A stretch of DNA of 64,000 nucleotides from Clostridia bacterium (lineage in GTDB: Bacteria > Bacillota > Clostridia > Oscillospirales > Acutalibacteraceae). The DNA is taken from NCBI GenBank assembly GCA_017434985.1, contig JAFSFY010000039.1, forward strand, positions 36,849 to 100,848, in the 5' to 3' direction. Under the pieces are notes generated by a model. It was not told where the DNA came from. It did not search any database and saw nothing but the letters and a program-made list of their open reading frames with translations. Shown here piece after piece: positions 711 through 63,708 of the stretch (position 1 is the first letter of the stretch; the number at the start of each line of letters is the position of its first letter). The translations under genes and the position numbers were made by a program.

Positions 711-749
711 AAAAAGCAGATGAGTTCGAAAGAACTCATCTGCTTTTTT
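711..749. terminator. Bidirectional intrinsic terminator (hairpin gcagatgagttc-gaaa-gaactcatctgc flanked by A-run and T-run)
   Basis: Perfect 12-bp stem at 715-743 with a T-run on the plus strand and an A-run upstream. It overlaps the araC-like stop. Confidence 0.5.
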
Positions 750-1692
750 ATGTATCAATCAGATGATAGGAAGTGCGATAGCGCCCGGGGGGCATTCCCT
801 CAAATTGCTTAAACGCCTTGCTCATCGTAAACTCGTCGCTGTATCCGACCGAAAGGGCGATCTCTTTTAAAGAAAGGTTGGTTTTTGTCAGCATATTTCT
901 GACTTGGCGGATGCGCTCTTTTCGTAAAAAGGCAAAGACACTCATATCGTAATATTTTACCATAATACGGTTGAGTTGCTTGATACTCATACCAAACTTT
1001 GTCTCAAAATCCACCTGTGTTAAGTGGGCGGAGAGGTTGGAACAAATAAACGAGGCAAGTTCCTCCGCGCGGGGATCTTTAAGAGTGACAACCGATTTCG
1101 TGTATTCAAAATGGGGATTGATGCTGCGCGAAACCTCTACGATCAGCAAAGACAGCAAATTGTTGATCACCACATCAACGCAGGGACGTTGGTCGACGAT
1201 CTCGCAGGATAGCCGATGAATGGTGGATAGCAACTGTTCGCTCATCGGCAGCGATGAAAACGGCGCGCTTTGAAAGCAACGGGACAAATACGCACCTTCC
1301 GGTGTGTCGTGGAACTGAATGTCCAACGCGATTCCCAAATGGACAGATTGTCGGTAATGGAATTGACGATGCAAAAATCCGGCGGGAAACAGGCAAAAAG
1401 AGCCTTGCGGAACGTAGAGTTCCGTTCCGTTTTCGTCGGTGTATCCCAATTCGCCGCACAAAGAAAAGAAGATCTCGTGCGAAGAATGTTTGTGACAATC
1501 TACGAGATAGTGTCCGTTTCGAACATAGTGACCGTCCTTTGATTGGCAAAACCGTAACCAAATGGTTTGTGCATCAAACTCGGGGCGGGAAAGGGTACGA
1601 TTTTTGCTGTTAAACTGCTTAAATGCTGCAGAGTTTTCGCTAAAAAGGGTTGAAATCTCGGCTAAACACTGCCTTTTATCCACGTTGTTCAC
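748..1692 (-). CDS. AraC-family transcriptional regulator (N-terminal cupin-like sensor, C-terminal double HTH)
   Basis: The C-terminus ...KSVVTLKDPRAEELASFICSNLSAHLTQVDFETKFGMSIKQLNRIMVKYYDMSVFAFLRKERIRQVRNMLTKTNLSLKEIALSVGYSDEFTMSKAFKQFEGMPPGRY is a classic AraC HTH pair. Confidence 0.85.
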   Translation of the reverse strand: MNNVDKRQCLAEISTLFSENSAAFKQFNSKNRTLSRPEFDAQTIWLRFCQSKDGHYVRNGHYLVDCHKHSSHEIFFSLCGELGYTDENGTELYVPQGSFCLFPAGFLHRQFHYRQSVHLGIALDIQFHDTPEGAYLSRCFQSAPFSSLPMSEQLLSTIHRLSCEIVDQRPCVDVVINNLLSLLIVEVSRSINPHFEYTKSVVTLKDPRAEELASFICSNLSAHLTQVDFETKFGMSIKQLNRIMVKYYDMSVFAFLRKERIRQVRNMLTKTNLSLKEIALSVGYSDEFTMSKAFKQFEGMPPGRYRTSYHLIDT

Positions 1693-1909: not shown

Positions 1910-3448
1910 ATGAAACGGATGGGAAAACGACTCGTCTTGCTGCTTTGTTCGATCGCGCTTTTTTGTTCGGGCTGTGCCGGTGGGGATGGTTCTGCTGCCA
2001 CCACGACACAAGCCGAGGCGACGACTACCACGGTGGAAACGGGCACGACCGATTCGACGCAAGAAATGCTCACGTCGACCCAAACGACGACAAGCACGAC
2101 TGTCAAAGCGACGACGGAGACGACAAAGAAAACAACGACGACGCGAATCACCATTAAATTGACCAAAACGACCGATACCGAAAAAACAACGATTGCAACA
2201 GAACTTGATAATACTACAGAGGTGATGACAACGATGAACGAAAACACTACTGTTTCTACAACCTCGTCAAGGAGAACCGTTTCGCGGAAAACGACCACCA
2301 CGACGAAATCAAACTTCGCTCAGGTTACTTTCCCCGTAGCACCGAAATACGCTACCCCCGCGCTTTCGGCGCTGGCGGTCAACAACCGTATCAACGGTGC
2401 GAAGACCAAAATTAAGTCGGAACGTTCGTTGGTGGCGGAATACGATCCCGAATGGGCTTTTGCACACCAAAACGGCATCACTTACTTCAAGGGCAAATAT
2501 TACGTTGGTTGGTCGTCCGGTGTGCGCCATGAAGACGCAGCGGGCCAACGCATCTTGGTGGCATCTTCCTCGGATAATTGCCAAACGTGGAGTGAACCGA
2601 CGGTCGTAGCGGTACCGGAAATGGGCACTCACGGGCAAAAGACGTTGCTGTTTGCACAGTTTGTGGCCACGGACGATATGTTGTACGTGTATTTTATCGA
2701 GCACGAATACGGTGCATCGCATTTCGACAGCAACGGCAATTTCATTGCCAAAGACGATCTGGAAGTTATCGCTTCCCGCAGTGTGGCCGTTTTTACAAGC
2801 GACGGTGTCAACTGGACCGAGCAAATAGAACTCGGCGGCAATTCCAACGAATCGCCGCGCCAATCGCTGACGGGAAAATGGTTCTCCGGTGCCGGAGACG
2901 GTTTGAACATCTGGGATGACAAAGGCGAATATCGAGTCAAATGGTCGAATTTGTCCACCCAGCAAGTTGCCGATGCCCGTTCGCGCGGTGCAGAACTGTT
3001 GACCGAAGCTTCGTGGTATCAAACCGACGATTATGTCATGCATATGATGTTGCGCAGCAACGCGGGATACGTGTGGATGAGCGAGAGTTACGATAACGGT
3101 GAAACCTGGACCGATGCCTATCCCACGAAATTTACCACCGACCACGCGATGTTTAATTTCGGTCGTTTGCCCGACGGGCGGTATTATTTTGTCGGCAGCT
3201 CCACGATGCAAGAAGGGGAATGGCGGCGCTATCCGTTGGAACTGTTTGTTTCGGAGGATGGGTACAATTTTAACAAAGCGTATATCCTGCGTGACGAGAA
3301 GTATCAGATGCAACAACAAGGATGGTCCAAAGGCGGCTATTTCGGCTATCCCGAGGTGTTTATCCACGACGGGTATATGCACATCTCGTATTCCAAAGAA
3401 AAGGAAGTTATTGAAGTCACGCGTGTGAAACTGTCGGATATCCTGTAA
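1910..3448 (+). CDS. Secreted lipoprotein with a Thr-rich linker and a BNR/Asp-box repeat (sialidase-like beta-propeller) domain
   Basis: RBS AAAGGGAGG. Lipoprotein signal MKRMGKRLVLLLCSIALFCSGC. About 120 aa of T/S-rich low complexity. Asp-box motifs SSDNCQTW, SYDNGETW and TSDGVNW. Confidence 0.7.
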   Translation: MKRMGKRLVLLLCSIALFCSGCAGGDGSAATTTQAEATTTTVETGTTDSTQEMLTSTQTTTSTTVKATTETTKKTTTTRITIKLTKTTDTEKTTIATELDNTTEVMTTMNENTTVSTTSSRRTVSRKTTTTTKSNFAQVTFPVAPKYATPALSALAVNNRINGAKTKIKSERSLVAEYDPEWAFAHQNGITYFKGKYYVGWSSGVRHEDAAGQRILVASSSDNCQTWSEPTVVAVPEMGTHGQKTLLFAQFVATDDMLYVYFIEHEYGASHFDSNGNFIAKDDLEVIASRSVAVFTSDGVNWTEQIELGGNSNESPRQSLTGKWFSGAGDGLNIWDDKGEYRVKWSNLSTQQVADARSRGAELLTEASWYQTDDYVMHMMLRSNAGYVWMSESYDNGETWTDAYPTKFTTDHAMFNFGRLPDGRYYFVGSSTMQEGEWRRYPLELFVSEDGYNFNKAYILRDEKYQMQQQGWSKGGYFGYPEVFIHDGYMHISYSKEKEVIEVTRVKLSDIL

Positions 3449-52393: not shown

Positions 52394-52480
52394 GGAGAGG
52401 TGTCCGAGCGGTTTAAGGAGCCGGTCTTGAAAACCGGTGACTCGAAAGAGCCAAGGGTTCGAATCCCTTCCTCTCCGCCA
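52394..52480 (+). tRNA. tRNA-Ser (anticodon TGA), type II with long variable arm, CCA encoded
   Basis: ggagaggtgtccgagcggtttaaggagccggtcttgaaaaccggtgactcgaaagagccaagggttcgaatcccttcctctccgcca. Acceptor, D, anticodon CT-TGA-AA, long variable and T arms all pair. Confidence 0.85.
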
Positions 52481-52535: not shown

Positions 52536-52626
52536 GGAGAAGTACTCAAGTTGGTGACGAGGCGCCCCTGCTAAGGGCGTAGGTCGGGTAACCGGCGCGA
52601 GGGTTCGAGTCCCTCCTTCTCCGCCA
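52536..52626 (+). tRNA. tRNA-Ser (anticodon GCT), type II, CCA encoded
   Basis: ggagaagtactcaagttggtgacgaggcgcccctgctaagggcg...gggttcgagtccctccttctccgcca. Confidence 0.85.
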
Positions 52627-52628
52627 AT

Positions 52629-52660
52629 GAAAAAAGCACCCTGTTGGGGTGCTTTTTTCA
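52629..52660 (+). terminator. Intrinsic terminator after the tRNA pair
   Basis: aaaagcaccc-tgtt-ggggtgctttt. Confidence 0.7.
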
Positions 52661-52825
52661 TTCACAGAATGTGAACTCGAACCCGAGCGACGGAGGCGCG
52701 GGCGTCACCTGCGAGCGCGTCCTGCGGACGAAACAGCGAGCAGGGGAGGGCGCAGCGGTCGAAATTCTACGAGCGAAAGCGAGTGACAAGAATTTCGGGC
52801 ACCGCAAGAGGGGTTGCGAAGCAAC

Positions 52826-52846
52826 TTCGAGTCCCTCCTTTTCTCA
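52826..52846 (+). other. Orphan tRNA-Ser 3'-end fragment (ttcgagtccctcctt, identical to the T-arm/acceptor 3' half of the upstream tRNA-Ser-GCT), flanked by imperfect ~27-bp direct repeats at 52668-52694 and 52854-52882: a candidate att-site / integration scar
   Basis: Seen directly. The 15-nt match is identical and about 21 nt are similar. Confidence 0.4.
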
Positions 52847-52947
52847 TTCTCGAAATGTGAGAGCACGAACCCGAGCGCCGAAGTACTTATGGTTGCAATT
52901 CTTGGCTGGCTGTGATACACTGTAGCCAAACAAAAGGGGGCGATACT

Positions 52948-53937
52948 GTGGAAAGACGTGTAGCGTTGTGGGATAACGTTCGTTTTTTTCTCATCACGAC
53001 GGTAGTTGTCGGTCATTTTGCAGACGAATTTACCGCTCAATCCGATGTCTGCAAAAGCTTATTCTTGTTCATCTACGCGTTTCACATGCCTCTGTTTATT
53101 TGGATCTCGGGGCATCTTCACAAAAACACACGTATCAGAGAGAAGTGTTTGTTTTATATTTCTGCCGGGTTTTTGCTAAAAATTTTGCTTACCGTTTTTC
53201 GCTGGATCATCGGGTATTCACTTTCTTTTTCACTTCTCGCCGACGGCAGCCTCCCGTGGTTTTTCTTTGCGTTGGCCGCCTATACGTTGATTGCTTACGC
53301 GTTGCGTGATAAAAACAAATGGTTTATCTTGATTCTTTCGGTGCTGATCGCGTGTTTTTGCGGTTTTGACACGACTGTTTCGGACTGGTTGTATCTTTCC
53401 CGCGTTGTGATTTTCTTCCCGTTTTATTGGTTAGGTACGATGATTGATTCCGAGCTTGTGTTGCGTGCAAAAAGGAAGAAATGGGTAATCGTTTGCTCGG
53501 TGGCGGTGATGCTGATTTGGGCGGCGGTATGTGCCTTTTCCTTGAACGACGTTTATGTTCTGCGCCACTTGTTTACGGGACGTAATCCTTTCTCCGACAA
53601 CGTGCGTGCTTTTGGCCCGTTTGCGCGTTTGCTTGCGTATGCTGTTTCCGGATTGACGTCGTTTGCGCTTGTGATGATAACACCGGCAAGAAACGTGAAA
53701 TGGCTCACAAAAATGGGATCGCGTTCCATTGATGTCTACGTGTGGCATTGGCCGGTGTTTTTGATTGCTTATGGTTTTTTCCATATCAACGATCTCTTTT
53801 CCTTGGGAATGCTCGGCAAAGCAAGCTATTTCTTGGTAGCCGTTTTTCTTAGTATTTTGCTGTCACAAGGGGGATTTATTTCCTACCCGCTGGAAACGAT
53901 CCGAAAATTCTGCTATGAACGAAAAGAACTTTCTTGA
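52948..53937 (+). CDS. Acyltransferase family 3 (OatA/WecH-like) membrane O-acyltransferase
   Basis: GTG after AAAAGGGGG. WDNVRFFLITTVVVGHF is the acyltransferase_3 N-terminal motif. About 10 TM. GC drops to roughly 42%. Confidence 0.75.
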   Translation: MERRVALWDNVRFFLITTVVVGHFADEFTAQSDVCKSLFLFIYAFHMPLFIWISGHLHKNTRIREKCLFYISAGFLLKILLTVFRWIIGYSLSFSLLADGSLPWFFFALAAYTLIAYALRDKNKWFILILSVLIACFCGFDTTVSDWLYLSRVVIFFPFYWLGTMIDSELVLRAKRKKWVIVCSVAVMLIWAAVCAFSLNDVYVLRHLFTGRNPFSDNVRAFGPFARLLAYAVSGLTSFALVMITPARNVKWLTKMGSRSIDVYVWHWPVFLIAYGFFHINDLFSLGMLGKASYFLVAVFLSILLSQGGFISYPLETIRKFCYERKELS

Positions 53938-54100
53938 TCTTGATCAAACTCTCTCGCTTGGCGGGGGAGTTTTTCTCTTATGCCAAGATGTGGGAGTTTT
54001 CGTCAACTATTGACTTTATAGCGATTTAGTGCTACACTTAGTTGAAGTGTATGCTTATATACCTATTGTTAGCGCAAAGGACAGTAAAGGAGAGCGGACT

Positions 54101-55321
54101 ATGCGGTTGTATATCGATCCCGGCACGGGCAGTATGCTGTTCACCATTTTGATTGGTGTGATCGGTGCGGCGTTCTATTCGTTGCGGATGTTGTTTATCA
54201 AATTGCGATACAAGTTCGGCGGCGGCAAGGTGGAGAACCTCGGTAAAAAGATCCCGTTTGTTATCTTTTCCGACAACAAACGCTATTGGAATATCTTTGA
54301 ACCCATCTGCAAGCGTCTGTCTGCTTACGGCAAAGAGATTTTGTACATCACCGGCTCTCCCGACGATGCCGCTTTGCAATGCGATCTGCCGAACTTTAAA
54401 GCGGAATACGCGCCCGGCAACAAATTGTACACCAAACTGAACTTTTTGGAAGCCAACGTGGTGTTGTCTACCACCCCCGGGTTGGATGTGTATCAGTGGA
54501 AACGCTCCAAGATGGTGGATTGCTATATCCACATTCCTCACGCAGCCAGTGAGATCGTACTGTACCGTATGTTCGGTATCGACTATTACGATGCGATTAT
54601 GCTTTCGGGCGACTATCAAGCCAAAAACATTCGCGATTTGGAACAGTTGCGTAACCTCCCCGAAAAAGAACTCACGATGATCGGCATTCCGTATATGGAC
54701 GAAATGGCGAAGCGTTTGGAAGTTTCCGGCCCTGCACCCGATCATCCGCGCACGGTGTTGCTTGCCCCCTCGTGGGGTTCCAGCGCGCTGTTGTCGGTCT
54801 ACGGCGGCAAGATCATCGACGTGCTTTTGAAAACGGGATACCACGTGATCGTGCGTCCTCACCCGCAATCTTTCACCTCTGAAAAAGAGATGATGGACAA
54901 GCTGATGGCGGAATATCCCGAATCCGATCAATTGGAATGGAACCGCGATACCGATAATTTTGACGTGTTGCGCCGTTCGGATATTCTTATTTCGGATTTC
55001 TCGGGCGTGATTTTCGATTTTACGTTGGTGTACGACAAACCCGTCATTTACACCGATCCCAAATTTGATTTAAGTTTGTACGATGCCTGGTGGTTGGAAG
55101 ACGAATTGTGGACGGTTTCCGCCCTGAAACGCCTTGGTATGCAACTTACCGACGAGAATATGGAAAACTTGAAAGAGTTGATCGACACCTGCATCAGCGA
55201 TCCGAGTTTTGCGGACGGCAGACGCAGTGTGAAAGAAGAAACGTGGGTCAATTTCGGCAACGGTGCCGATGCCGCCACCGCGTATTTGATCAAGAAATAC
55301 GAAGAAACGGAGGGGAAATAA
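54101..55321 (+). CDS. CDP-glycerol glycerophosphotransferase family protein (TagB/TagF-like) with an N-terminal TM
   Basis: RBS AAGGAGAG. LLAPSWGSS (compare APTWR) and ILISDFSGVIFDF (compare SDYSSV.FDF), motifs of the Glyphos_transf family. Confidence 0.7.
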   Translation: MRLYIDPGTGSMLFTILIGVIGAAFYSLRMLFIKLRYKFGGGKVENLGKKIPFVIFSDNKRYWNIFEPICKRLSAYGKEILYITGSPDDAALQCDLPNFKAEYAPGNKLYTKLNFLEANVVLSTTPGLDVYQWKRSKMVDCYIHIPHAASEIVLYRMFGIDYYDAIMLSGDYQAKNIRDLEQLRNLPEKELTMIGIPYMDEMAKRLEVSGPAPDHPRTVLLAPSWGSSALLSVYGGKIIDVLLKTGYHVIVRPHPQSFTSEKEMMDKLMAEYPESDQLEWNRDTDNFDVLRRSDILISDFSGVIFDFTLVYDKPVIYTDPKFDLSLYDAWWLEDELWTVSALKRLGMQLTDENMENLKELIDTCISDPSFADGRRSVKEETWVNFGNGADAATAYLIKKYEETEGK

Positions 55322-58093
55322 ATGTCATTGCTCTCAATTCTGGAAACGATATTTATCGGTCCTCTCAAACTGCTTTTTGAAATTATTTTTCAAGTAGCGG
55401 ACCGTTTTGTGGATCATCCCGGCTTGTCCATCATCGTGCTCAGCTTGGTGATGAACATTTTGGTACTTCCGCTTTACAAGCGTGCCGACGCGATGCAAGA
55501 AGAATCGCGTGACACGGAAGCGCGCCTTTCGCGTGGTGTTAACCACATCAAAAAGGTGTTCTCGGGCGACGAGCGGATGATGATCCTGCAAACGTATTAT
55601 CGCCAGAACAACTACAAGCCCACCAATGCCCTTAACGGCTCGGTCTCGTTGCTTCTGGAAATTCCGTTTTTTATGGCGGCGTACCAATTCTTGTCCCATT
55701 TGGACGTGTTAAGCGGCGTGTCGCTCGGTCCGATCAAAGACCTGTCGGCCCCCGATGGGCTCATTGTCATCGGCTCGCTTTCCATTAACTTGTTGCCGGT
55801 GTTGATGACGGCGGTCAACGTGATTTCATCCGCCATCTATCTGAAAGGGTTTCCGCTGAAAACCAAGATTCAGTTGTATGCGATGGCGTTGTTTTTCCTC
55901 GTGTTTTTGTACACGTCGCCTTCCGGCCTCGTGTTCTATTGGACGCTGAACAACGTGTTCTCGCTCGCCAAAAACATTTTCTACAAAATCAAAAATCCCG
56001 CCAAAGTGTTGCGCATTCTGACCGCCGTGTTGGGTGTGGCGTCCATCGGCGTGGGCTTTGCGGTGTTCCCTGCCAATCCGCTCAAACGCGCGTTTTTGAT
56101 CGTGCTCGGTTTGGCGCTGATGTTCCCGCTTTTGTGGAATCTCCTCCAATCCAAAATCACCATCAAGAAAACCGAAAGCACGGCACAACCGAACAAAAAA
56201 GTGTTCGTGTGCGGTTGCTTGTTCTTGACGGCGTTGATGGGGCTCTTGATCCCCTCCACCTTTATTGCGGCTTCGCCGCAGGAATACGTGGACATCTCCT
56301 ATTTCCACCATCCGCTTTGGTATCTTGTCAGCACGGCGGCGATGGCGGTCGGCTTCTTTATGGTGTGGTTCCGCGTGTTCTATTGGCTTGCCAGCCCCAA
56401 AGGCAAAGTGATCTTTGATCGGTTGATGTGGGTGCTGTGCGGTATCACCATCGTCAACTATATGTTCTTCGGCACCAATCTCGGTGTCATTTCTTCCAAC
56501 TTGGTGTACGACAACGAAATGGCATTCACCACGCTGGAATATCTGCTCAATACGCTTGCTGTGTTGGCGGTGGCGGTGCTGTTGTATTTGGTTGCCACCA
56601 AGTGGAGCAAGATCATCCCGCCCGTATTGTTGGTGGCGTCCATCGCGCTTACCGCCATGAGCGGTCTGCACGTGTACACCACGGCGGAATCGGTCAGCCA
56701 GATCTCGGTGGAGCAAAGTGACACGGTTCCCAACTTCAACTTAAGCAAAACCGGGAAAAACGTTATCGTGATGATGATTGACCGCGGTATGGGTTCGTAT
56801 TTGCCGTATTTGATGCAGGAACGTCCCGAACTGCGCGAACAATTTGCCGGGTTTACGTGCTATACCAACGTTATTTCGCACGGCGCGTGCACCAACTTCG
56901 GTTCGCCCGGCTTGTTCGGCGGTTATGAATACACGCCGGTGGAAATGAACAAGCGCGATGGCGAGTTGTTGAAGGACAAGCACAACGAAGCATTGAAATT
57001 GATGCCGGTGTTGTTTGCTCAAAACGGTTATGACGTAACCGTGTGCGACCCCGTGTATGCCAACTACAATTGGCTCGCTGATACAAGTATTTATGACGAG
57101 TATCCCGACATTGACACGTTTGTCACCGAAGGTGCGTTTTCGGATAACAAAGGTAAGATTGAAAAGATCAATAATGGCCATCGCAACTTCTTCTGCTTCT
57201 CGGCGATGAAATCGATGCCGTTGCTTCTGCAACCGTTTGTGTATGATGATGGTGCTTACAATCAAGCCGTTGCCCAAGACGAAGGAGAGTACACCTATGT
57301 GAAGCAGGTCATCGAGGCAGGTTCTACCACCAAAGCCGAGGGTGTCAGCAAGGATTTCGTTAATCCTTTCAACGTGTTGGTCAACCTACCAAACATTACC
57401 AAGACGACCGACGATGAAGCCGGTACGTTTTTGATGATCGCCAACAACGCGGCTCACGAAGATAGTTTGTTACAACGGCCCGAGTATGTGCCCACGCCGA
57501 CCGTTGACAACACGGAGTTTGATGCCAAGTTCGGTGACAACGTGACGGTGGACGGTAAAGTGATGCACCTGACCACGGTTGAACAAAAAGCGCACTACCA
57601 GGCCAACATGGCGGTGATGCTCCAACTTGGTAAATGGATGGACTACCTGCGCGAACAGGGTGTTTACGATAACACCAAGATCATTTTTGTGGCTGACCAC
57701 GGGTTTTGTGCCAAACAGTTTGACGAGCTGATCGTCGACGGTCACGATGTGCAGATCTATCATCCGCTGTTGCTGGTGAAAGACTTCGACAGTACCGAAT
57801 TTACCGTTTCGGATGAGTTTATGACCAACGCCGATGTACCGACTATTGCTTTTGCCGATTGTGTGGAGAATCCGGTCAATCCCTTTACCGGAAATCCCAT
57901 CAATAACGATGAAAAGACGGCACACGATCAGTATATTACGCTTTCACTGGAATGGGATACCAAGACGAACAACGGCAACACCTTTACGCCTTCTAAATGG
58001 GCCAAGGTTTCCGACGATATGTGGAACAAAAAGAATTGGGAGTTCTACAACGAAAAAGTCGTCTTGAAAGACCACGAATTCCCAACGGAATAA
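55322..58093 (+). CDS. Fusion protein: N-terminal YidC/Oxa1-family membrane insertase domain + additional TM segments + C-terminal LtaS/sulfatase-like alkaline-phosphatase-superfamily domain
   Basis: GLSIIVLSLVMNILVLPLYKR, MMILQTYYRQNNYKPTNALNGSVSLLLEIPFFMAAYQFL, LGPIKDLSAPDG and PSGLVFYWTLNNVFSLAKN align motif-for-motif with SpoIIIJ/YidC. The C-terminal NVIVMMIDRGMGSY...TNFGSPGLFGG...KIIFVADHGF carries AP-superfamily metal-site, nucleophile and DHG motifs. Confidence 0.7.
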   Translation: MSLLSILETIFIGPLKLLFEIIFQVADRFVDHPGLSIIVLSLVMNILVLPLYKRADAMQEESRDTEARLSRGVNHIKKVFSGDERMMILQTYYRQNNYKPTNALNGSVSLLLEIPFFMAAYQFLSHLDVLSGVSLGPIKDLSAPDGLIVIGSLSINLLPVLMTAVNVISSAIYLKGFPLKTKIQLYAMALFFLVFLYTSPSGLVFYWTLNNVFSLAKNIFYKIKNPAKVLRILTAVLGVASIGVGFAVFPANPLKRAFLIVLGLALMFPLLWNLLQSKITIKKTESTAQPNKKVFVCGCLFLTALMGLLIPSTFIAASPQEYVDISYFHHPLWYLVSTAAMAVGFFMVWFRVFYWLASPKGKVIFDRLMWVLCGITIVNYMFFGTNLGVISSNLVYDNEMAFTTLEYLLNTLAVLAVAVLLYLVATKWSKIIPPVLLVASIALTAMSGLHVYTTAESVSQISVEQSDTVPNFNLSKTGKNVIVMMIDRGMGSYLPYLMQERPELREQFAGFTCYTNVISHGACTNFGSPGLFGGYEYTPVEMNKRDGELLKDKHNEALKLMPVLFAQNGYDVTVCDPVYANYNWLADTSIYDEYPDIDTFVTEGAFSDNKGKIEKINNGHRNFFCFSAMKSMPLLLQPFVYDDGAYNQAVAQDEGEYTYVKQVIEAGSTTKAEGVSKDFVNPFNVLVNLPNITKTTDDEAGTFLMIANNAAHEDSLLQRPEYVPTPTVDNTEFDAKFGDNVTVDGKVMHLTTVEQKAHYQANMAVMLQLGKWMDYLREQGVYDNTKIIFVADHGFCAKQFDELIVDGHDVQIYHPLLLVKDFDSTEFTVSDEFMTNADVPTIAFADCVENPVNPFTGNPINNDEKTAHDQYITLSLEWDTKTNNGNTFTPSKWAKVSDDMWNKKNWEFYNEKVVLKDHEFPTE

Positions 58094-58108
58094 GAGGAGG
58101 GGTGCGAT

Positions 58109-58993
58109 ATGTATCGTGTGGATAATGCCGTCATTATGGCGGCAGGTACGGCCAGCCGTTTTGCACCTCTTTCGTATGAGCGCCCGAAAGCACTCATTGA
58201 GGTGAAAGGCGAGGTGCTCATCGAACGGCAGATCCGCCAACTGCAAGAGGCGGGTATCCGCGACATCATCATCGTCGTGGGATATATGAAAGAGTGTTTT
58301 GCGTATTTGGAAGAAAAATGCGGTGTCACCATCGTGGAAAACACCGAATATCTGACCCGCAATAACAACTCCACCATTTTTGCCGTAAAAGACTATTTGA
58401 AAAATACCTATATTTGTTCGTCTGACAACTACTTTTCGCGCAATCCGTTCGAAAGCGAAGTAGACGACGCTTACTACGCCGCCATTTACGCCGACGGCGA
58501 AACCAAAGAATGGTGTATGACCGAAGACAAAGAGGGGTACATCGATTCGGTGACGGTCGGCGGGCGCGATGCGTGGTTTATGCTTGGTCATACGTTTTGG
58601 ACCGAGGAGTTTACCGAAAGGTTTTTGCGCATTTTGGAACGTATTTACGACGAGCCTCGTACGGCGGATCTGTTATGGGAATCCATTTATATGGAGCACC
58701 TCGACCAACTGAAAATGAAGATCCGCAAGTACGACAGTGACGTGATCTTTGAGTTTGACACGTTGGATGAATTACGCGAGTTTGATGAGAGTTATAAAGC
58801 CGACACGCGCTCGGCAATTCTCAAATCCATTGCGGCACAGTTGGGATGTACCGAGGAAGAGATCGTGCACGTCACGTCGTACAAAGACGGCAATAACGCT
58901 GCCGCCGGTATTCATTTTGAAGTAGGCGAAAAACGGTATGCCTACGCCTATAAAACCCGTCAATTGAGCGCGAAAGCGCCCGATACCGTATAA
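58109..58993 (+). CDS. licC: LicC-like nucleotidyltransferase (CTP:phosphocholine cytidylyltransferase family) with a ~60-aa C-terminal extension
   Basis: NAVIMAAGTASRFAPLSYERPKALIEV...IIIVVGYMKECFAYLEEKCGV closely parallels pneumococcal LicC (AIILAAGLGTRLRPLTENTPKALVQV...IIIIVGYLKEQFDYLKEKYGV). Confidence 0.8.
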   Translation: MYRVDNAVIMAAGTASRFAPLSYERPKALIEVKGEVLIERQIRQLQEAGIRDIIIVVGYMKECFAYLEEKCGVTIVENTEYLTRNNNSTIFAVKDYLKNTYICSSDNYFSRNPFESEVDDAYYAAIYADGETKEWCMTEDKEGYIDSVTVGGRDAWFMLGHTFWTEEFTERFLRILERIYDEPRTADLLWESIYMEHLDQLKMKIRKYDSDVIFEFDTLDELREFDESYKADTRSAILKSIAAQLGCTEEEIVHVTSYKDGNNAAAGIHFEVGEKRYAYAYKTRQLSAKAPDTV

Positions 58994-59025
58994 ACCATTT
59001 TTTACCGTTAAAGGAGGAATGTCCG

Positions 59026-59934
59026 ATGGGAGAGATCATTAAACAAGACTTGAGCGCCGTTTCCGATTTGTTGAAATTGGTTGTGGGGAAGGACGACTAT
59101 TGTGATATCAAGCGCATGGGCGGCCTGACCAACCACACATACTACGTGGCATTTGCCGACGGCGCGGAATACGTGGTGCGTATTCCCGGGGAAGGCACCG
59201 AAGAACTCATTGTGCGAAGCGATGAGGAGAAGAGTACGACACTTGCCTGCAAACTCGGTGTGGATGCCAAGATGCTGCATTTCGGCAAGGATGGTTCCAA
59301 GGTGACCGAATACATCAAAAACGCGGTCACGATGTCGTCTGAAACGTTGAAAGAGCCTGCTCGCATCGGGCAGGTCGCCGATATCTTCAATGTGATGCAT
59401 TCGTGTGGTGAAGACACGGGCGTTCCGTTTGAGGTGTTCGATATGGCGGCGGGGTATGAGAAGATCATCCGCGATATGAACGTGCCGATGTTCGATGACT
59501 ACGCCGAAAACAAACAAATTGTGATGGACATCAAAGCGGAGATCGACGCGTCATTCGACATCAGAAAAGTCCCTTGCCATAACGATCCGCTTTGCGAAAA
59601 CTGGGTGGTCGGTGACGGCGACAGAATGTACCTGATCGATTGGGAATACGCCGGTATGAACGATGGTATGTGGGATATTGCCGACGTGTCCATCGAAGCG
59701 GGGTACAACGACGAACAAGACGCGTTGCTTCTTGAGAAATACTTGAAAAAAGTTCCCGATACCTTGGACAAAAAGCATTTCTTGGCAAGCAAAATTTACG
59801 TGGATTATCTGTGGACCTTGTGGGCGATGGCCCGTGTTCCGTACGACGGAAAACCGATGGAAGATTGGGCGACCGAGCGCTACGCAAGGATGAAAGATAA
59901 TATAACCAACTTTTCGCAACTTAAGGAGGAGTAA
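59026..59934 (+). CDS. licA: Choline/ethanolamine kinase (LicA-like)
   Basis: Brenner motif CHNDPLCENWV and choline-kinase motif LIDWEYAGMND. RBS AAAGGAGGAA. Confidence 0.85.
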   Translation: MGEIIKQDLSAVSDLLKLVVGKDDYCDIKRMGGLTNHTYYVAFADGAEYVVRIPGEGTEELIVRSDEEKSTTLACKLGVDAKMLHFGKDGSKVTEYIKNAVTMSSETLKEPARIGQVADIFNVMHSCGEDTGVPFEVFDMAAGYEKIIRDMNVPMFDDYAENKQIVMDIKAEIDASFDIRKVPCHNDPLCENWVVGDGDRMYLIDWEYAGMNDGMWDIADVSIEAGYNDEQDALLLEKYLKKVPDTLDKKHFLASKIYVDYLWTLWAMARVPYDGKPMEDWATERYARMKDNITNFSQLKEE

Positions 59935-59938
59935 AACG

Positions 59939-60892
59939 ATGACAGCAGGAATTATTGCGGGTATCACTTGGGCTCTTGAAACGGTTATTTTGGGTATCGC
60001 GTTGGCGATGTCCCCGTTCTGTTCGACCGAACAAGCCATCTTTTTGGCTCCGTTCGTCAGCACCTTCCTTCACGATGCGTGCTCCGCCATTTGGGCGCTC
60101 ATTTATAACGGTGTGCGCGGCAAACTCGGCGACGTGTGGAAAGCGTTCAAAACCAAAAGCGGCAAATGGGTAGCCTTGGCGGCAACCATCGGCGGCCCCG
60201 TCGGTATGACGGGCTACGTGTTGGCGGTCAACTATATGGGCGCTTCCATCGGTGCGGTGGCGAGTGCTATTTTCCCCGCCATCGGCAGCGTGCTTGCGTT
60301 CTTCTTCCTGAAAGAAAAAATGAAATGGCACCAATGGTTGTTTTTGATCGTGACCTTGCTCGGCGTGTATGGTCTCAGCTATTCGCCCGACTTGGACATC
60401 AAAAATTTCTGGCTCGGTCTTATCGGTGCGTTGATGTGCGCGTTCGGTTGGGGCATTGAGGCGGTTATCGTCGCCAAATCGTTGACCGACCCCGAAGTGA
60501 CCGACGAATACGCGTTGCAAATTCGCCAAACCACCTCCGCGCTTGTGTACGGCATCATCATTTTGCCGATCATCAAAGGTTGGGGTTTCACCGCGAGTTT
60601 GTTTACCGGCGGCACCGGTTGGTTGTTGCCCACCATTGCGATTGCGGCATTGTTTGCCACCGTTTCGTACCTCTTCTATTACAAAGCGATCGCGCAGATC
60701 GGCGCTTCCAAAGCCATGGCATTGAATGTCACCTATACGGCGTGGGCGATCGTCTTTACGGTTATTCTTTCGCTCATCAAGCAAGAAACGGTTTCCTTGT
60801 CTTTCATCACCATTTTGTGTGCCATCGTGGTGTTGGTGTGCGGTATCTTTGCTGCTGCTGACTTCAAAGAGATTTTGGCGAAGAAAAAATAA
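59939..60892 (+). CDS. licB: LicB-like choline permease (DMT/EamA superfamily, 10 TM)
   Basis: AIFPAIGSVLAFFFLKEKMKW aligns with LicB AIYPAISVLLAFFFLKHK. RBS AAGGAGGAG. Confidence 0.75.
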   Translation: MTAGIIAGITWALETVILGIALAMSPFCSTEQAIFLAPFVSTFLHDACSAIWALIYNGVRGKLGDVWKAFKTKSGKWVALAATIGGPVGMTGYVLAVNYMGASIGAVASAIFPAIGSVLAFFFLKEKMKWHQWLFLIVTLLGVYGLSYSPDLDIKNFWLGLIGALMCAFGWGIEAVIVAKSLTDPEVTDEYALQIRQTTSALVYGIIILPIIKGWGFTASLFTGGTGWLLPTIAIAALFATVSYLFYYKAIAQIGASKAMALNVTYTAWAIVFTVILSLIKQETVSLSFITILCAIVVLVCGIFAAADFKEILAKKK

Positions 60893-60895
60893 AGG

Positions 60896-60928
60896 TAAAA
60901 CGCCCCTCGGAAGAGGGGCGTTTTGGTT
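60896..60928 (+). terminator. Intrinsic terminator after licB
   Basis: aaacgcccctc-ggaa-gaggggcgttt followed by a T-run. Confidence 0.65.
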
Positions 60929-61045
60929 GTAAAAAACAAACTTTTACCAGTAAAAAAGTTGCATCTTTTTGAAAGAAGATGGACAATCACAGGGGTATAT
61001 GCTACCATAAGTTTGCAGATAACTCGTATTGAAGGGGACTACATT

Positions 61046-62800
61046 ATGCAAACGATATACTTGTCCGAACAAGGTGTTCGCACAGGGGAGGATATTACGG
61101 TATCCTTGTGTAAACTGTTTTGTGAATATCGCGAAAATACGACTTTTGTTTTTGAAAACGGGGATTATTATTTTTCACCGCATGCTGAAATGAAAGCGGA
61201 TTATCGGTTGTCCAATACCGATGTAGCTCCGGAACGCACGTTGGGGTTGTGGCTCAAAAAAATGAAAAATTGCACCTTGGTCGGTAACGGCGCACGCTTG
61301 TGGTTTGCGGGACATATGCAACCTTTTACGCTGGACGAGTGTGAAAACGTAACGATACAAGGATTTGTCATTAACTGGAAAAAACCGATGGTGGCGGAGG
61401 GCATTGTGCAAGCTGTTTCCGACAAAACGGTGGATGTGTATGTTGATCCCGATAAATTCCCTCATCGTATGCGCGATGGCCAATTGGAATTTGATGTGGG
61501 TGCCGATGAATGGTACCCGCTTGTCCGGTGGGGCCATAACGTGTTTGAACCGCATTTTCGCACCTTGCGCCGTAAAGCGGGTGACTGCATTTCCACAGGA
61601 AATGGTGTGACCGATTTGGGTGGCGATAGGTATCGCATCGAATCTCACCGCGAGGTGGTGGCGTGCCCCGGCGATATCGTGGTGTTGCGCCATAACAGTC
61701 GCAAGCACGCCGGCATTTTCAGTGAACATTGCCGTGACATTACCATTGAGGATGTTACGGTGCATTCTTGTGGCGGTTTGGGTTGTTTGTCACAGTTTTG
61801 CCATAATATGACTTACCGCCGTGTGCATTTTGTTCCCGACCGCGCGGCGGGACGGTTGATTACCAACGGCCGTGACGATGGGATGCACATCACCTGTAAC
61901 AGCGGCACGGTCACCATTACGGAATGCACTTTCCTTGGTTTAATGGATGATCCCATCAACGTGCACGCTTGTTGTGTCAAGGTGACTGAGGCGATCGGCA
62001 ACCGCGCGTTGCGTTGCCAATACGGTCACGTGCAAGCACAGGGCTTCAAGTATTGGGCCAAAGCGGGGGACGAGATCGTCTTTATCGACCGCGGTAATAT
62101 GTCGTGTGTCTATAAAGCGAAGGCCAAGGCATATATGTTGGAAGCAATCGATACCTTTACCATCGAATTTGAAGAAGAATTGCCCGATTTTGTGTTGAAG
62201 ATGGCTCAAAAAGGTGCGGCCTTGGCCATTGACAATGTCACTAACACGTCGGCATTTGTGTGTACCAACAACCGCTTCGGTAGTTGCCGCGCGCGCTCGG
62301 TGCTGATCTCTACGCCGAAACCCGTGTTGATTGAAAACAACTATTTTGAGTCCTCCGGATCGGCCGTATTGGTGGCAGGCGATGCCAATGGTTGGTTCGA
62401 GTCAGGCGAATGCCACGACGTTGAGATTCGCGGCAACGTGTTTACGCAAGCGTGTCTCACCAGTAACTACGAATTTTGCGAAGGTGTCATTAGTGTGTGT
62501 CCCGTGGTTCCAAAACCCGAAGTGGAGAAACCCTTCCACAAACACATCCGCATCGTCGACAACACGTTTGATACGGCAGATGCCCCGGTCTTGTATGCCT
62601 ATTCGTGCGAGGGATTGCAATTTGTCAACAACCGCATTTTCAAAAGTCCCGCCGCGGAAAAATGGCATCCCAACGAAAATCGTATCAAACTGCGCTATTG
62701 TGTAGGCGCTTCGCTTCAAAACAATCAGTGGATCGGCACGTTTTCTGACGATACCATTCTTGAACAAGAACACTGCTTGCATACTACCTTTGATCACTAA
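61046..62800 (+). CDS. Right-handed parallel beta-helix (pectin-lyase-fold) protein, possible glycosidase/lyase acting on the surface polymer
   Basis: RBS GAAGGGGA. Repeating beta-helix rungs (GNGARLWFAG, ITIEDVTVHSCGGLG, NNRFGSCRARSVLIS, NNYFESSGSAVLVAGD, IRGNVFTQ). No signal peptide is evident at the chosen start. GC is about 43-47%. Confidence 0.6.
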   Translation: MQTIYLSEQGVRTGEDITVSLCKLFCEYRENTTFVFENGDYYFSPHAEMKADYRLSNTDVAPERTLGLWLKKMKNCTLVGNGARLWFAGHMQPFTLDECENVTIQGFVINWKKPMVAEGIVQAVSDKTVDVYVDPDKFPHRMRDGQLEFDVGADEWYPLVRWGHNVFEPHFRTLRRKAGDCISTGNGVTDLGGDRYRIESHREVVACPGDIVVLRHNSRKHAGIFSEHCRDITIEDVTVHSCGGLGCLSQFCHNMTYRRVHFVPDRAAGRLITNGRDDGMHITCNSGTVTITECTFLGLMDDPINVHACCVKVTEAIGNRALRCQYGHVQAQGFKYWAKAGDEIVFIDRGNMSCVYKAKAKAYMLEAIDTFTIEFEEELPDFVLKMAQKGAALAIDNVTNTSAFVCTNNRFGSCRARSVLISTPKPVLIENNYFESSGSAVLVAGDANGWFESGECHDVEIRGNVFTQACLTSNYEFCEGVISVCPVVPKPEVEKPFHKHIRIVDNTFDTADAPVLYAYSCEGLQFVNNRIFKSPAAEKWHPNENRIKLRYCVGASLQNNQWIGTFSDDTILEQEHCLHTTFDH

Positions 62801-62818
62801 ACTAAAGGAGAAGATGTT

Positions 62819-63649
62819 ATGATTACTTGGCAAGACGTCAAACGTATGGCGGAAGAACTCGGTGTGCGGGAAGGGGACAGCTTGATCGTCCACTCCTCTT
62901 TTAAAAGCATCGGCGAAACCGAAAACGGTGCCGATACCGTTATCAAGGGGTTGCTCGCCGCCGTGGGGGAGAGCGGTACGTTGATGTTCCCCACCTTGTG
63001 TCAAAACGATTGGGAACACGTGTATGAAAATTGGCATATGGACGCCCCTTCGGACGTGGGATACCTTACCAATTATTTCCGTAAACTGCCGGGCGCGTTG
63101 CGCTCCAACCAAGCGACCCACTCGGTGGCTGCCATCGGCAGGGACGCCGCATACTTCACCGAAACGCACGGTGTGACGGGTCGCCGCCACGGTATTTTTG
63201 GCGATACGCCCTTTTCGGCCGATTCTCCTTGGGAGAAGATGTTGGAAAAGAACACCAAAATGATGTTTCTCGGTTGTACGATGCTTGCATGCACAATGCG
63301 CCATTTAGCGGAATATCGCTACATTGATGAATATTTACAAAAGGCGAAAAAAAGTCCTCGATACGAGGAACTGAAAAATCGCTTGTGGTGCTACGATCGT
63401 TGGAAAGAAGGCGGTGTCTGGTATCACCTCGGTGCGGCACTGATGGAACCGATTTTGAACGAGCGCGGTCAAATGCATTACGCCAAGTGCGGCAACGCCG
63501 ACGTGAAGTTGGTGGCGGCGCAGGATTTTGTGAAATTGGCGTATGAAGAGATGGATGCGCGCAATGCGGATACTTTCTTTATGCCGGATGGTTGCGGTTG
63601 GGACCCGCAAGATATCTTCGATTGGCTGAATGAAGTCAACGCCTTATAA
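62819..63649 (+). CDS. AAC(3)-family aminoglycoside N3-acetyltransferase-like protein (Antibiotic_NAT fold; YokD-like)
   Basis: SLIVHSSFKSIGETENGADTVIKGLLAAVGESGTLMFPT parallels AAC(3) ALMLHASVKAVG...DGTLMMYAGW. RBS AAAGGAGAAG. Confidence 0.8.
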   Translation: MITWQDVKRMAEELGVREGDSLIVHSSFKSIGETENGADTVIKGLLAAVGESGTLMFPTLCQNDWEHVYENWHMDAPSDVGYLTNYFRKLPGALRSNQATHSVAAIGRDAAYFTETHGVTGRRHGIFGDTPFSADSPWEKMLEKNTKMMFLGCTMLACTMRHLAEYRYIDEYLQKAKKSPRYEELKNRLWCYDRWKEGGVWYHLGAALMEPILNERGQMHYAKCGNADVKLVAAQDFVKLAYEEMDARNADTFFMPDGCGWDPQDIFDWLNEVNAL

Positions 63650-63666
63650 TCAAAAAACCTCCGCTT

Positions 63667-63708
63667 AGGGAGACACTTCGTAAAGAAGTGTTCTCCCTGC
63701 TTTCTTTA
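63667..63708 (+). terminator. Intrinsic terminator
   Basis: agggagacacttc-gtaaa-gaagtgttctccct followed by a T-rich run. Confidence 0.6.

Follow-up and report, generated by a model that had tools for sequence, protein, structure and literature searches.

A conserved clostridial operon unites choline-activation genes with a TagF-like enzyme and a YidC/alkaline-phosphatase fusion, candidates for phosphocholine transfer without LicD

The DNA analysed is a stretch of 64,000 nt from a Clostridia bacterium (assembly GCA_017434985.1, contig JAFSFY010000039.1, positions 36,849 to 100,848 of the forward strand), called here the window, whose own numbering is used for all positions. It carries five genes (54101–60892) coding for a TagF-like protein, a protein in which a YidC-like part is fused to an alkaline-phosphatase-type domain (the fusion), and the choline proteins LicC, LicA and LicB. 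Together they constitute one operon that is conserved across Clostridia, an association missed by the initial annotation of this sequence. For its function we regard as an even prospect a pathway in which cytidine diphosphate (CDP)-choline would be made by the lic products, the TagF-like protein would replace LicD and the fusion would carry out a step at the outer face of the membrane. All protein and tRNA genes of the region described below are on the forward (+) strand.

The three lic products are true homologues of pneumococcal LicC, LicA and LicB, as initially proposed, and their genes follow the order licC-licA-licB with no tarIJ genes at the locus. LicB (59939–60892, 317 residues, Pfam EamA), a choline/proton symporter-like member of the drug/metabolite transporter (DMT)/EamA superfamily, is 35% identical to pneumococcal LicB (PDB 7B0K, E=2e-32). 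Nine of the ten positions shown to bind choline and couple protons in the pneumococcal transporter are identical (W17, H43, W167, E170, R191, Y233, Y236, N252 and Y255), the tenth being a change of Y109 to F. LicA (59026–59934, 302 residues, Pfam Choline_kinase) matches PDB 4R77 (E=3e-39, 29% identity) and PDB 3DXQ (E=1e-42). It has the Brenner and choline-kinase motifs, is identical at T29, H174, D176, N181, D194, E196, Y197, E213, W251 and W254, and shows the conservative changes V178L and Y268W; the aromatic, quaternary-amine box and E213 are thus among the features retained. LicC (58109–58993, 294 residues, Pfam NTP_transferase) is a cytidylyltransferase-like protein 33% identical to PDB 1JYK (E=5e-42) that keeps the pocket residues W136, W165, W191, E216 and D218, and also D107. 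Its choline-pocket residues are in part those that we take to form the pocket and in part those listed in PMC6697681. The prediction of choline as substrate, made at the outset, is upheld by the residues of LicA and LicB, while the LicC pocket is altered at three positions. The specificity of LicC is consequently less certain than that of LicA and LicB, and none of the NCBIfam models reaches its cut-off for these Lic proteins. With all three proteins considered, choline is the most likely substrate. LicC also has a carboxyl-terminal extension of ~64 residues (58799–58993) that has no Pfam match and is not present in pneumococcal LicC.

The TagF-like protein (54101–55321, 406 residues) is assigned to the family of CDP-alcohol phosphotransferases by Pfam PF04464 (Glyphos_transf; 41.1 bits versus a gathering threshold of 22.1). 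Its structural model has a GT-B fold with a predicted local distance difference test (pLDDT) score of 83, and Foldseek ranks two TagF-like capsule polymerases highest, 8qoy and 8a0m (Cps3D, Cps1B); a phmmer search found no sequence match in the PDB. The family motifs LAPSWG, RPHPQ and ISDFSG are invariant. At the amino terminus (54101–54220) an invariant YIDPGTGSMLFT motif precedes one transmembrane helix, an arrangement that may serve as a docking element for the fusion. The TagF-like protein is more conserved than the fusion, its 120th database match being still 73% identical. It is a candidate substitute for LicD, and its gene context points to CDP-choline as the donor. A donor of this kind has a parallel in FtaD of C. 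difficile, a TagF-like enzyme that uses CDP-N-methylthreonine, a non-polyol, amine-bearing CDP donor (bioRxiv 10.64898/2026.02.12.704994).

The fusion (55322–58093, 923 residues; 60KD_IMP and Sulfatase in Pfam) is a real single protein, as first noted. It comprises a YidC/Oxa1-like part (residues ~18–222), further transmembrane helices (~226–463) and an extracytoplasmic domain of the alkaline-phosphatase superfamily (~470–923). The YidC-like part scores 82 bits with PF02096 and aligns to the five-helix core of E. coli and Bacillus YidC (E=1.5e-8), while the score with the NCBIfam YidC model TIGR03592 (74.5 bits) does not reach the cut-off of 84.3. An invariant Asn45 is found where YidC has the arginine of its hydrophilic groove (R366 in E. 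coli), which suggests that the function of the YidC-like domain has changed. The carboxyl-terminal domain belongs to the alkaline-phosphatase superfamily. Its sequence profile matched PDB entries only in the DHG region, to sulfatases, and the C/S-x-P-x-R sulfatase motif was not found in the protein. Invariant residues of the fusion are D487, T524, H712, D792-H793 and H868; by their spacing D487, T524 and D792-H793 would provide the metal site and threonine nucleophile seen in EptA/LtaS-type transferases. A Foldseek search with the fusion retrieved full-length PbgA, EptA and MCR-1 first, and then LtaP/LtaS, with the membrane parts included. The label LtaS initially given to this domain is not specific, for no similarity particular to LtaS was detected.

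The fusion is a widespread protein of conserved length. Its best 120 database matches are all 904–943 residues long and at least 59% identical to it. An exhaustive search gives the family at least 1445 cluster representatives at 50% identity (E<=1e-30) from human-gut and rumen metagenomes, of which the best 150 are nearly all full-length. Some loci carry tandem fusion genes 3' of a single TagF-like gene, three in L141 (8529–16395) and two in L166 (7167–12754). The copies are each ~51% identical to the window fusion, a situation reminiscent of EptA/LtaS paralogues with different acceptors.

Conservation of the operon was followed in 83 loci (identified by L numbers) anchored on fusion homologues, of which three belong to genome assemblies and the other 80 to metagenomes of rumen or human gut. 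The TagF-like gene lies directly 5' of the fusion gene in 60 of the 63 evaluable loci, and the gap between them is 0–1 nt in all nine annotated ones. A LicC homologue of at least 45% identity is encoded in 40 of the 83 loci. Where enough flank is available on both sides (24 loci), 15 have such a LicC, one has only a divergent LicC-like protein and eight have none. The commonest order is TagF-fusion-CAB, as in the window, with CAB-TagF-fusion in L088, L092 and L116 and licC-licA-Rce1-TagF-fusion in an Agathobacter genome. Adjacency is therefore kept despite changes in gene order, and this in both Oscillospirales and Lachnospirales.

The absence of a nearby licD, noted at first annotation, holds over a longer distance: neither the LicD signature (PF04991) nor tblastn detects such a gene within the window or the 9.6 kb that follow it. 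Among the 83 loci LicD is present in two (L090 and L123; PF04991, E down to 8e-48). Only in L090 (3124–6504) was LicD seen directly beside the fusion, which there has TagD and two LicD-family genes 3' of it. In the control species Collinsella aerofaciens LicC and LicA are fused, the LicC portion having 51% identity to the window LicC; a DMT transporter accompanies them, and a LicD family gene is found 7 kb off in a polysaccharide cluster. Other genes for activated alcohols are found at loci of the TagF-fusion pair. A TagD-like cytidylyltransferase (PF01467) accompanies it in four of the 83 loci and in none of the 40 with LicC; no TagD-like gene is present in the window. Other loci carry a divergent nucleoside triphosphate (NTP)-transferase/kinase pair (27–33% identity). 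The constancy of the TagF-fusion pair, combined with alternative genes for a CDP-alcohol phosphate, is what is expected if the pair consumes that product. A separate clade of TagF-like proteins from loci devoid of lic genes was looked for and did not form: on clustering, these proteins are mixed with those from loci that have lic genes. In L155 (10420–12827), and similarly in L160, licCAB is replaced by genes for a class I/II aminotransferase and for a TagD-like protein fused to a GFO/IDH/MocA oxidoreductase; that these supply a CDP-activated amino-alcohol such as serinol phosphate is speculative.

The analysis establishes homology, the retention of choline-binding positions in LicA and LicB, a conserved neighbourhood of genes and, as described below, native composition; the donor of the TagF-like protein, the role of the fusion and the final acceptor are inferred in the pathway that follows. 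LicB would import choline, LicA would phosphorylate it and LicC would convert phosphocholine to CDP-choline. The membrane-anchored TagF-like protein, whose gene abuts that of the fusion, would then act in place of LicD and use CDP-choline to place phosphocholine on a membrane-bound acceptor at the cytoplasmic face. The fusion would handle the resulting lipid-linked head group at the outer face and pass it to an envelope polymer, using a threonine nucleophile and a metal site as EptA, LtaS and PptA do. The YidC-derived domain might give a path across the bilayer. Such chemistry has precedents, since enzymes of the alkaline-phosphatase superfamily move phosphoethanolamine, phosphocholine or glycerophosphate from lipids (PptA, PMC10434233) and YidC scrambles lipids in vitro (PMC11047089).

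Several observations weigh against this assignment of roles. In the model of the fusion residues ~470–923 have high confidence, while the YidC-like part has a pLDDT of 40–60. The choice of T524 as nucleophile is based on motif spacing (EptA-like enzymes have the nucleophile Thr ~40 residues after a metal-ligand Asp/Glu), and the alkaline-phosphatase domain resembles sulfatases and EptC/LtaS to an equal degree. About a third of the evaluable TagF-fusion loci have no lic genes nearby, and in the four loci with a TagD-like gene the TagF-like protein may simply use CDP-glycerol. A licD gene may lie elsewhere in the genome, the negative result covering the window and the following 9.6 kb; note that in S. 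pneumoniae licD1 and licD2 belong to a transcription unit other than licABC. The changes D105S, Y190L, D192E and R129A of LicC are fixed in 36 of 36 operon-associated homologues. The Glu at position 192 resembles PntC, an enzyme specific for aminoethylphosphonate that has Glu at the positions of LicC D105 and D192 (PMC6697681).

A more general version of the same pathway, put forward tentatively and rather doubtful as a whole, sees the TagF-like protein and the fusion as a three-step machine for decoration with zwitterionic head groups in Clostridia that would need neither LicD nor a dedicated flippase. At the inner face, the TagF-like protein would charge a membrane lipid with a phospho-alcohol taken from its CDP donor. 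The YidC-derived domain, with its groove Arg replaced by Asn, would be specialised in moving that lipid, as a scramblase or translocation groove, and the alkaline-phosphatase-type domain would move the head group to an envelope polymer outside. Donors would be interchangeable: choline through licCAB, glycerol phosphate through TagD, and an amino-alcohol phosphate through the TagD-oxidoreductase protein and the aminotransferase. In C. immunis and C. symbiosum, this machine could also be the transferase that gives rise to the phosphocholine exopolysaccharide.

The main rival explanation, which is unlikely without being far-fetched, accepts choline activation as above but keeps a canonical LicD, encoded elsewhere, for the transfer; the TagF-like protein and the fusion would build or export a glycerophosphate-type polymer that receives phosphocholine, which would explain their place beside licCAB. 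It agrees with the classical use of CDP-glycerol by enzymes of the TagF family, with the TagD-like gene beside the pair in four loci and with the pneumococcal licD genes lying outside the licABC unit. It is also in line with L170, which has genes of teichoic-acid type (TagD-like, Glyphos_transf, flippase, GT2, Wzy_C) clustered at a distance of 4 kb, and with LicD being encoded 3' of the fusion twice in L090 and by one gene in L123. However, TagD-like genes are absent from the window and from all 40 loci with LicC, and LicD occurs in just two of the 83 neighbourhoods. LicC-type and TagD-type genes are mutually exclusive beside the pair, a pattern that fits alternative donors better than a fixed need for CDP-glycerol.

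Less probable is that the pathway ends in a membrane lipid containing choline (phosphatidylcholine or a phosphocholine glycolipid) and not in a decorated wall polymer; the fusion would remodel or sense this lipid in the manner of PbgA. The membrane anchor of the TagF-like protein is compatible with it, and a CDP-choline route to phosphatidylcholine exists in Treponema. The invariant set of metal and nucleophile residues in the fusion argues instead for a catalytic transferase or hydrolase, and the neighbours of the operon are surface-glycan genes: an acyltransferase gene in the window, MurJ in L088 and the polysaccharide cluster in L170.

The initial annotation had interpreted the region as a horizontally acquired island at tRNA-Ser that may confer phosphocholine decoration. 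A recent island of this kind is improbable. The GC content of 52627–63708 is 49.5% versus 52.5% upstream; this difference of ~3 points, which places the region below every upstream 11-kb window (minimum 51.3%), is in favor of an island. The much sharper fall announced initially, from 58% to 42–48%, was not reproduced: the 58% corresponds to a single 1-kb window located 7 kb upstream, the immediate flank (48–52.4 kb) is already at 49–52%, and potABCD, 5' of the tRNA genes, is at ~50%. The claim that an AT-rich stretch runs to the window end was also mistaken, as the block stops at 63649, beyond which come dut, acpS, queH and pyrH. GC content at third codon positions (GC3) is 0.614 for the eight genes of the region and 0.621 for 56 other open reading frames (ORFs) (Mann-Whitney p=0.74), the comparison set having been chosen greedily and including a few wrong-strand ORFs that slightly lower its mean. 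The GC deficit of the eight genes is confined to codon positions 1 and 2 and hence reflects amino-acid composition, four of the eight products being membrane proteins. The dinucleotide signature of the core operon is ordinary (delta* of 26, versus 30 +/- 8.5 for all 6.8-kb windows). In the comparison of composition suggested with the island proposal, GC3 and the dinucleotide signature thus come out native, and composition gives no sign of foreign origin.

The genomic surroundings bear on the same question. Relatives gathered through the flanking potD gene (80 loci kept) are metagenome-assembled genomes of Acutalibacteraceae/Oscillospirales, several of which have potABCD-HAD-tRNA-Ser-tRNA-Ser in common. 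That the cassette begins right after the two tRNA genes, next to a tRNA 3'-like fragment and repeats, favors an insertion. The cassette was expected to be missing beside the same tRNA-Ser in relatives, and this is true of L010, which has unrelated genes there (MarR, DegV, oxidoreductase, AcnX), and of L013, which likewise has different genes. In contrast, L086 (GCA_054294645.1) carries potABCD-HAD-tRNA-Ser(tga)-tRNA-Ser(gct), three small genes and then TagF-fusion-LicC-LicA-LicB. Protein identity to the window is 65–85% for its operon and 56–87% for its flank, similar values that fit co-inheritance. The distance from potABCD to pyrH-frr, 14.2 kb here versus 2.6–4.9 kb in distant relatives, is a further point for insertion, as are the several assemblies that break at this site and the mobile elements flanking the licABC genes of C. 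immunis (bioRxiv 10.1101/2024.06.12.598703). Against it, a Pfam search of the window genes and of the extending contig found neither integrase nor transposase, no bracketing repeat (att, attachment site) surrounds the cassette and a search of 72,556 plasmid records with the fusion returned nothing. Tests of base composition (GC content, GC3 and dinucleotides), of repeats and integrases and of relatives thus lead to rejection of the recent tRNA-Ser island, and the operon looks native, not a recent import. The site 3' of tRNA-Ser is a rearrangement-prone spot, and an ancient insertion at the tRNA-Ser/dut site is conceivable. Elsewhere the operon has other flanks: L172 (fusion 85% identical) has TagF-fusion-LicC-LicA-LicB-beta-helix followed by the start of an ORF cut by the contig end, L171 (79%) has AT3-TagF-fusion-LicCAB-beta-helix-AAC3 (AT3 and AAC3 are acyltransferase and acetyltransferase genes described below), and L169 (72%) has the five-gene core 3' of a sialidase-like gene.

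The tRNA fragment and direct repeats reported after the tRNA-Ser pair do exist. An 18-nt copy of the 3' end of tRNA-Ser(gct), with one mismatch, lies at 52826–52843; three tRNA 3'-end matches were found in the window versus 0.03 expected by chance. A direct repeat of ~45 nt has copies at 52652–52695 and 52838–52883. The fragment is nevertheless not an att scar of the cassette, because both repeat copies are 5' of the first cassette gene, no copy was found at the far end of the cassette and the ~225-nt post-tRNA element, tRNA-like end included, is kept with high identity in L010, which has no lic cassette at that place. This GC-rich element (52663–52883 on the + strand, delimited by repeat search; 4660–4870 in L010) opens with sequence in antisense orientation to a tRNA T-arm and closes with a tRNA 3'-like end in sense orientation. 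Probably the tRNA 3' end and the sequence downstream of it were duplicated in tandem long ago and the copy has since decayed. A structured RNA is a conceivable alternative; a known RNA was rejected, since the element matches no Rfam family and its fold z-score is only -1.8. In L007, L009, L175 and L176 the contig ends at or just after the tRNA-Ser pair and repeat element, as fits repeats or strain heterogeneity.

Hardly probable, finally, is another amino alcohol or a phosphonate as substrate (ethanolamine, a dimethylated analogue or 2-aminoethylphosphonate): D105S, Y190L and D192E fixed in the LicC clade, the PntC-like Glu at the D192 position (PMC6697681) and the lack of any NCBIfam model at cut-off speak for it, but in LicB the aromatic box is complete and both N252 and the residues for proton coupling are retained, LicA preserves E213 together with its quaternary-amine box, the locus has no ppm/phosphonate genes, and a phosphonate would need no kinase.

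The operon shares with the Lic-1 pathway of S. pneumoniae and H. influenzae a homologous transporter, kinase and cytidylyltransferase, with the choline residues of LicB and LicA kept. It differs from it in the absence of LicD from the locus, the order C-A-B, the lack of tarIJ, the three changed positions of the LicC pocket and the tight linkage to the TagF-like and fusion genes. The TagF-like protein has in common with TagF, TarF and TagB (CDP-glycerol/CDP-ribitol) and with FtaD the PF04464 family, the GT-B fold, the motifs and membrane association; unlike them, it is paired with choline activation and not with TagD/TarIJ, and has the YIDPGTGSMLFT motif and helix. As in EptA/MCR-1, PptA, LtaS/LtaP, GacH and PbgA/YejM, transmembrane segments precede an extracytoplasmic alkaline-phosphatase-fold domain in the fusion, which has no match to these proteins at the sequence level and carries an amino-terminal YidC-like domain found in none of them. 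Compared with YidC/Oxa1 insertases, the fusion stays below the NCBIfam cut-offs, has Asn for the groove arginine and has ~700 further residues fused.

Phosphocholine decoration in a Clostridia commensal is not new in itself. In the gut commensal C. immunis licABC decorates an exopolysaccharide with phosphocholine, with no licD mentioned, and licABC alone gave C. symbiosum a phosphocholine-modified polysaccharide (bioRxiv 10.1101/2024.06.12.598703). Because this transfer of licABC was sufficient in C. symbiosum, a resident transferase must exist there. Compared by description, C. immunis has a three-gene operon with mobile elements on its flanks, whereas the window has a native five-gene operon with candidate transferases. 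A literature search found no description of lic genes associated with a TagF-like enzyme and a YidC/alkaline-phosphatase fusion. Surface phosphocholine shapes host recognition through C-reactive protein, natural antibodies and the platelet-activating factor (PAF) receptor. The phosphocholine-modified polysaccharide of a gut Clostridium has been linked to host metabolism in a recent preprint, which does not identify the transferase. The operon offers two concrete and widespread candidates for the phosphocholine transfer step, the TagF-like protein and the fusion, and suggests that a YidC-derived domain was recruited into the modification of envelope glycoconjugates. Given such a widespread module, LicD-free attachment of phosphocholine in gut Clostridia becomes a directly testable question.

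The remaining features of the region complete its layout. The eight co-directional genes carry the domains assigned to them initially (Pfam), and both tRNA-Ser genes are real: tRNA-Ser with anticodon tga is at 52394–52480 (ARAGORN; Rfam tRNA model 59.6 bits) and tRNA-Ser with anticodon gct at 52536–52626 (ARAGORN; 53.6 bits). The latter is directly followed by a terminator-type hairpin (52626–52662, + strand) with 16-nt arms of perfect complementarity and then a T run. Hairpins at 53946–53972, which is terminator-like and 3' of the acyltransferase gene, and at 60897–60924 bound the five-gene transcription unit. The second, palindromic, GC-rich and situated between an A run and a T run without strand assignment, is the likely core-operon terminator. 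A promoter-like site precedes the core operon at 54010–54038 (+ strand; TTGACT-17-TACACT with an upstream TG), identified by consensus match only. An identical contig from a ruminant gut metagenome continues beyond the window and shows, 3' of the block, dut, acpS, queH, pyrH, frr, uppS, cdsA, dxr, rseP, ispG and polC. The same species with the same arrangement is found in three ruminant samples.

The three other genes of the block are accessory neighbours in separate transcription units. The stand-alone membrane acyltransferase of the Acyl_transf_3 family (AT3; 52948–53937, 329 residues, PF01757 E=3e-16, with a gene call in L001) probably acts in O-acetylation of a surface glycan; AT3 is also 5' of the TagF-like gene in L171. 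A right-handed beta-helix protein with GLAA-B barrel domains (61046–62800, 584 residues; Pfam) has neither signal peptide nor transmembrane segment detected in a hydropathy scan, and its gene is seen with the operon only in the close relatives L171 and L172. The AAC(3)-fold N-acetyltransferase (62819–63649, 276 residues, Pfam Antibiotic_NAT, PF02522 142 bits) scores 102.8 bits with the NCBIfam AAC_3 model versus a cut-off of 270. It is a member of the fold family, not a curated resistance AAC(3), and should not be counted as an aminoglycoside resistance gene. Its gene accompanies that of the beta-helix protein in L171, while L172 has a truncated unannotated ORF at that position. A motif scan of the window detected no choline-binding repeat proteins. 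The lowest GC content of the window (43%) is found at 1–2000, near a gene for an AraC-family regulator (748–1692, minus strand) beside a BNR/sialidase-like gene (1910–3448); it deviates more than the GC content of the 52627–63708 region.

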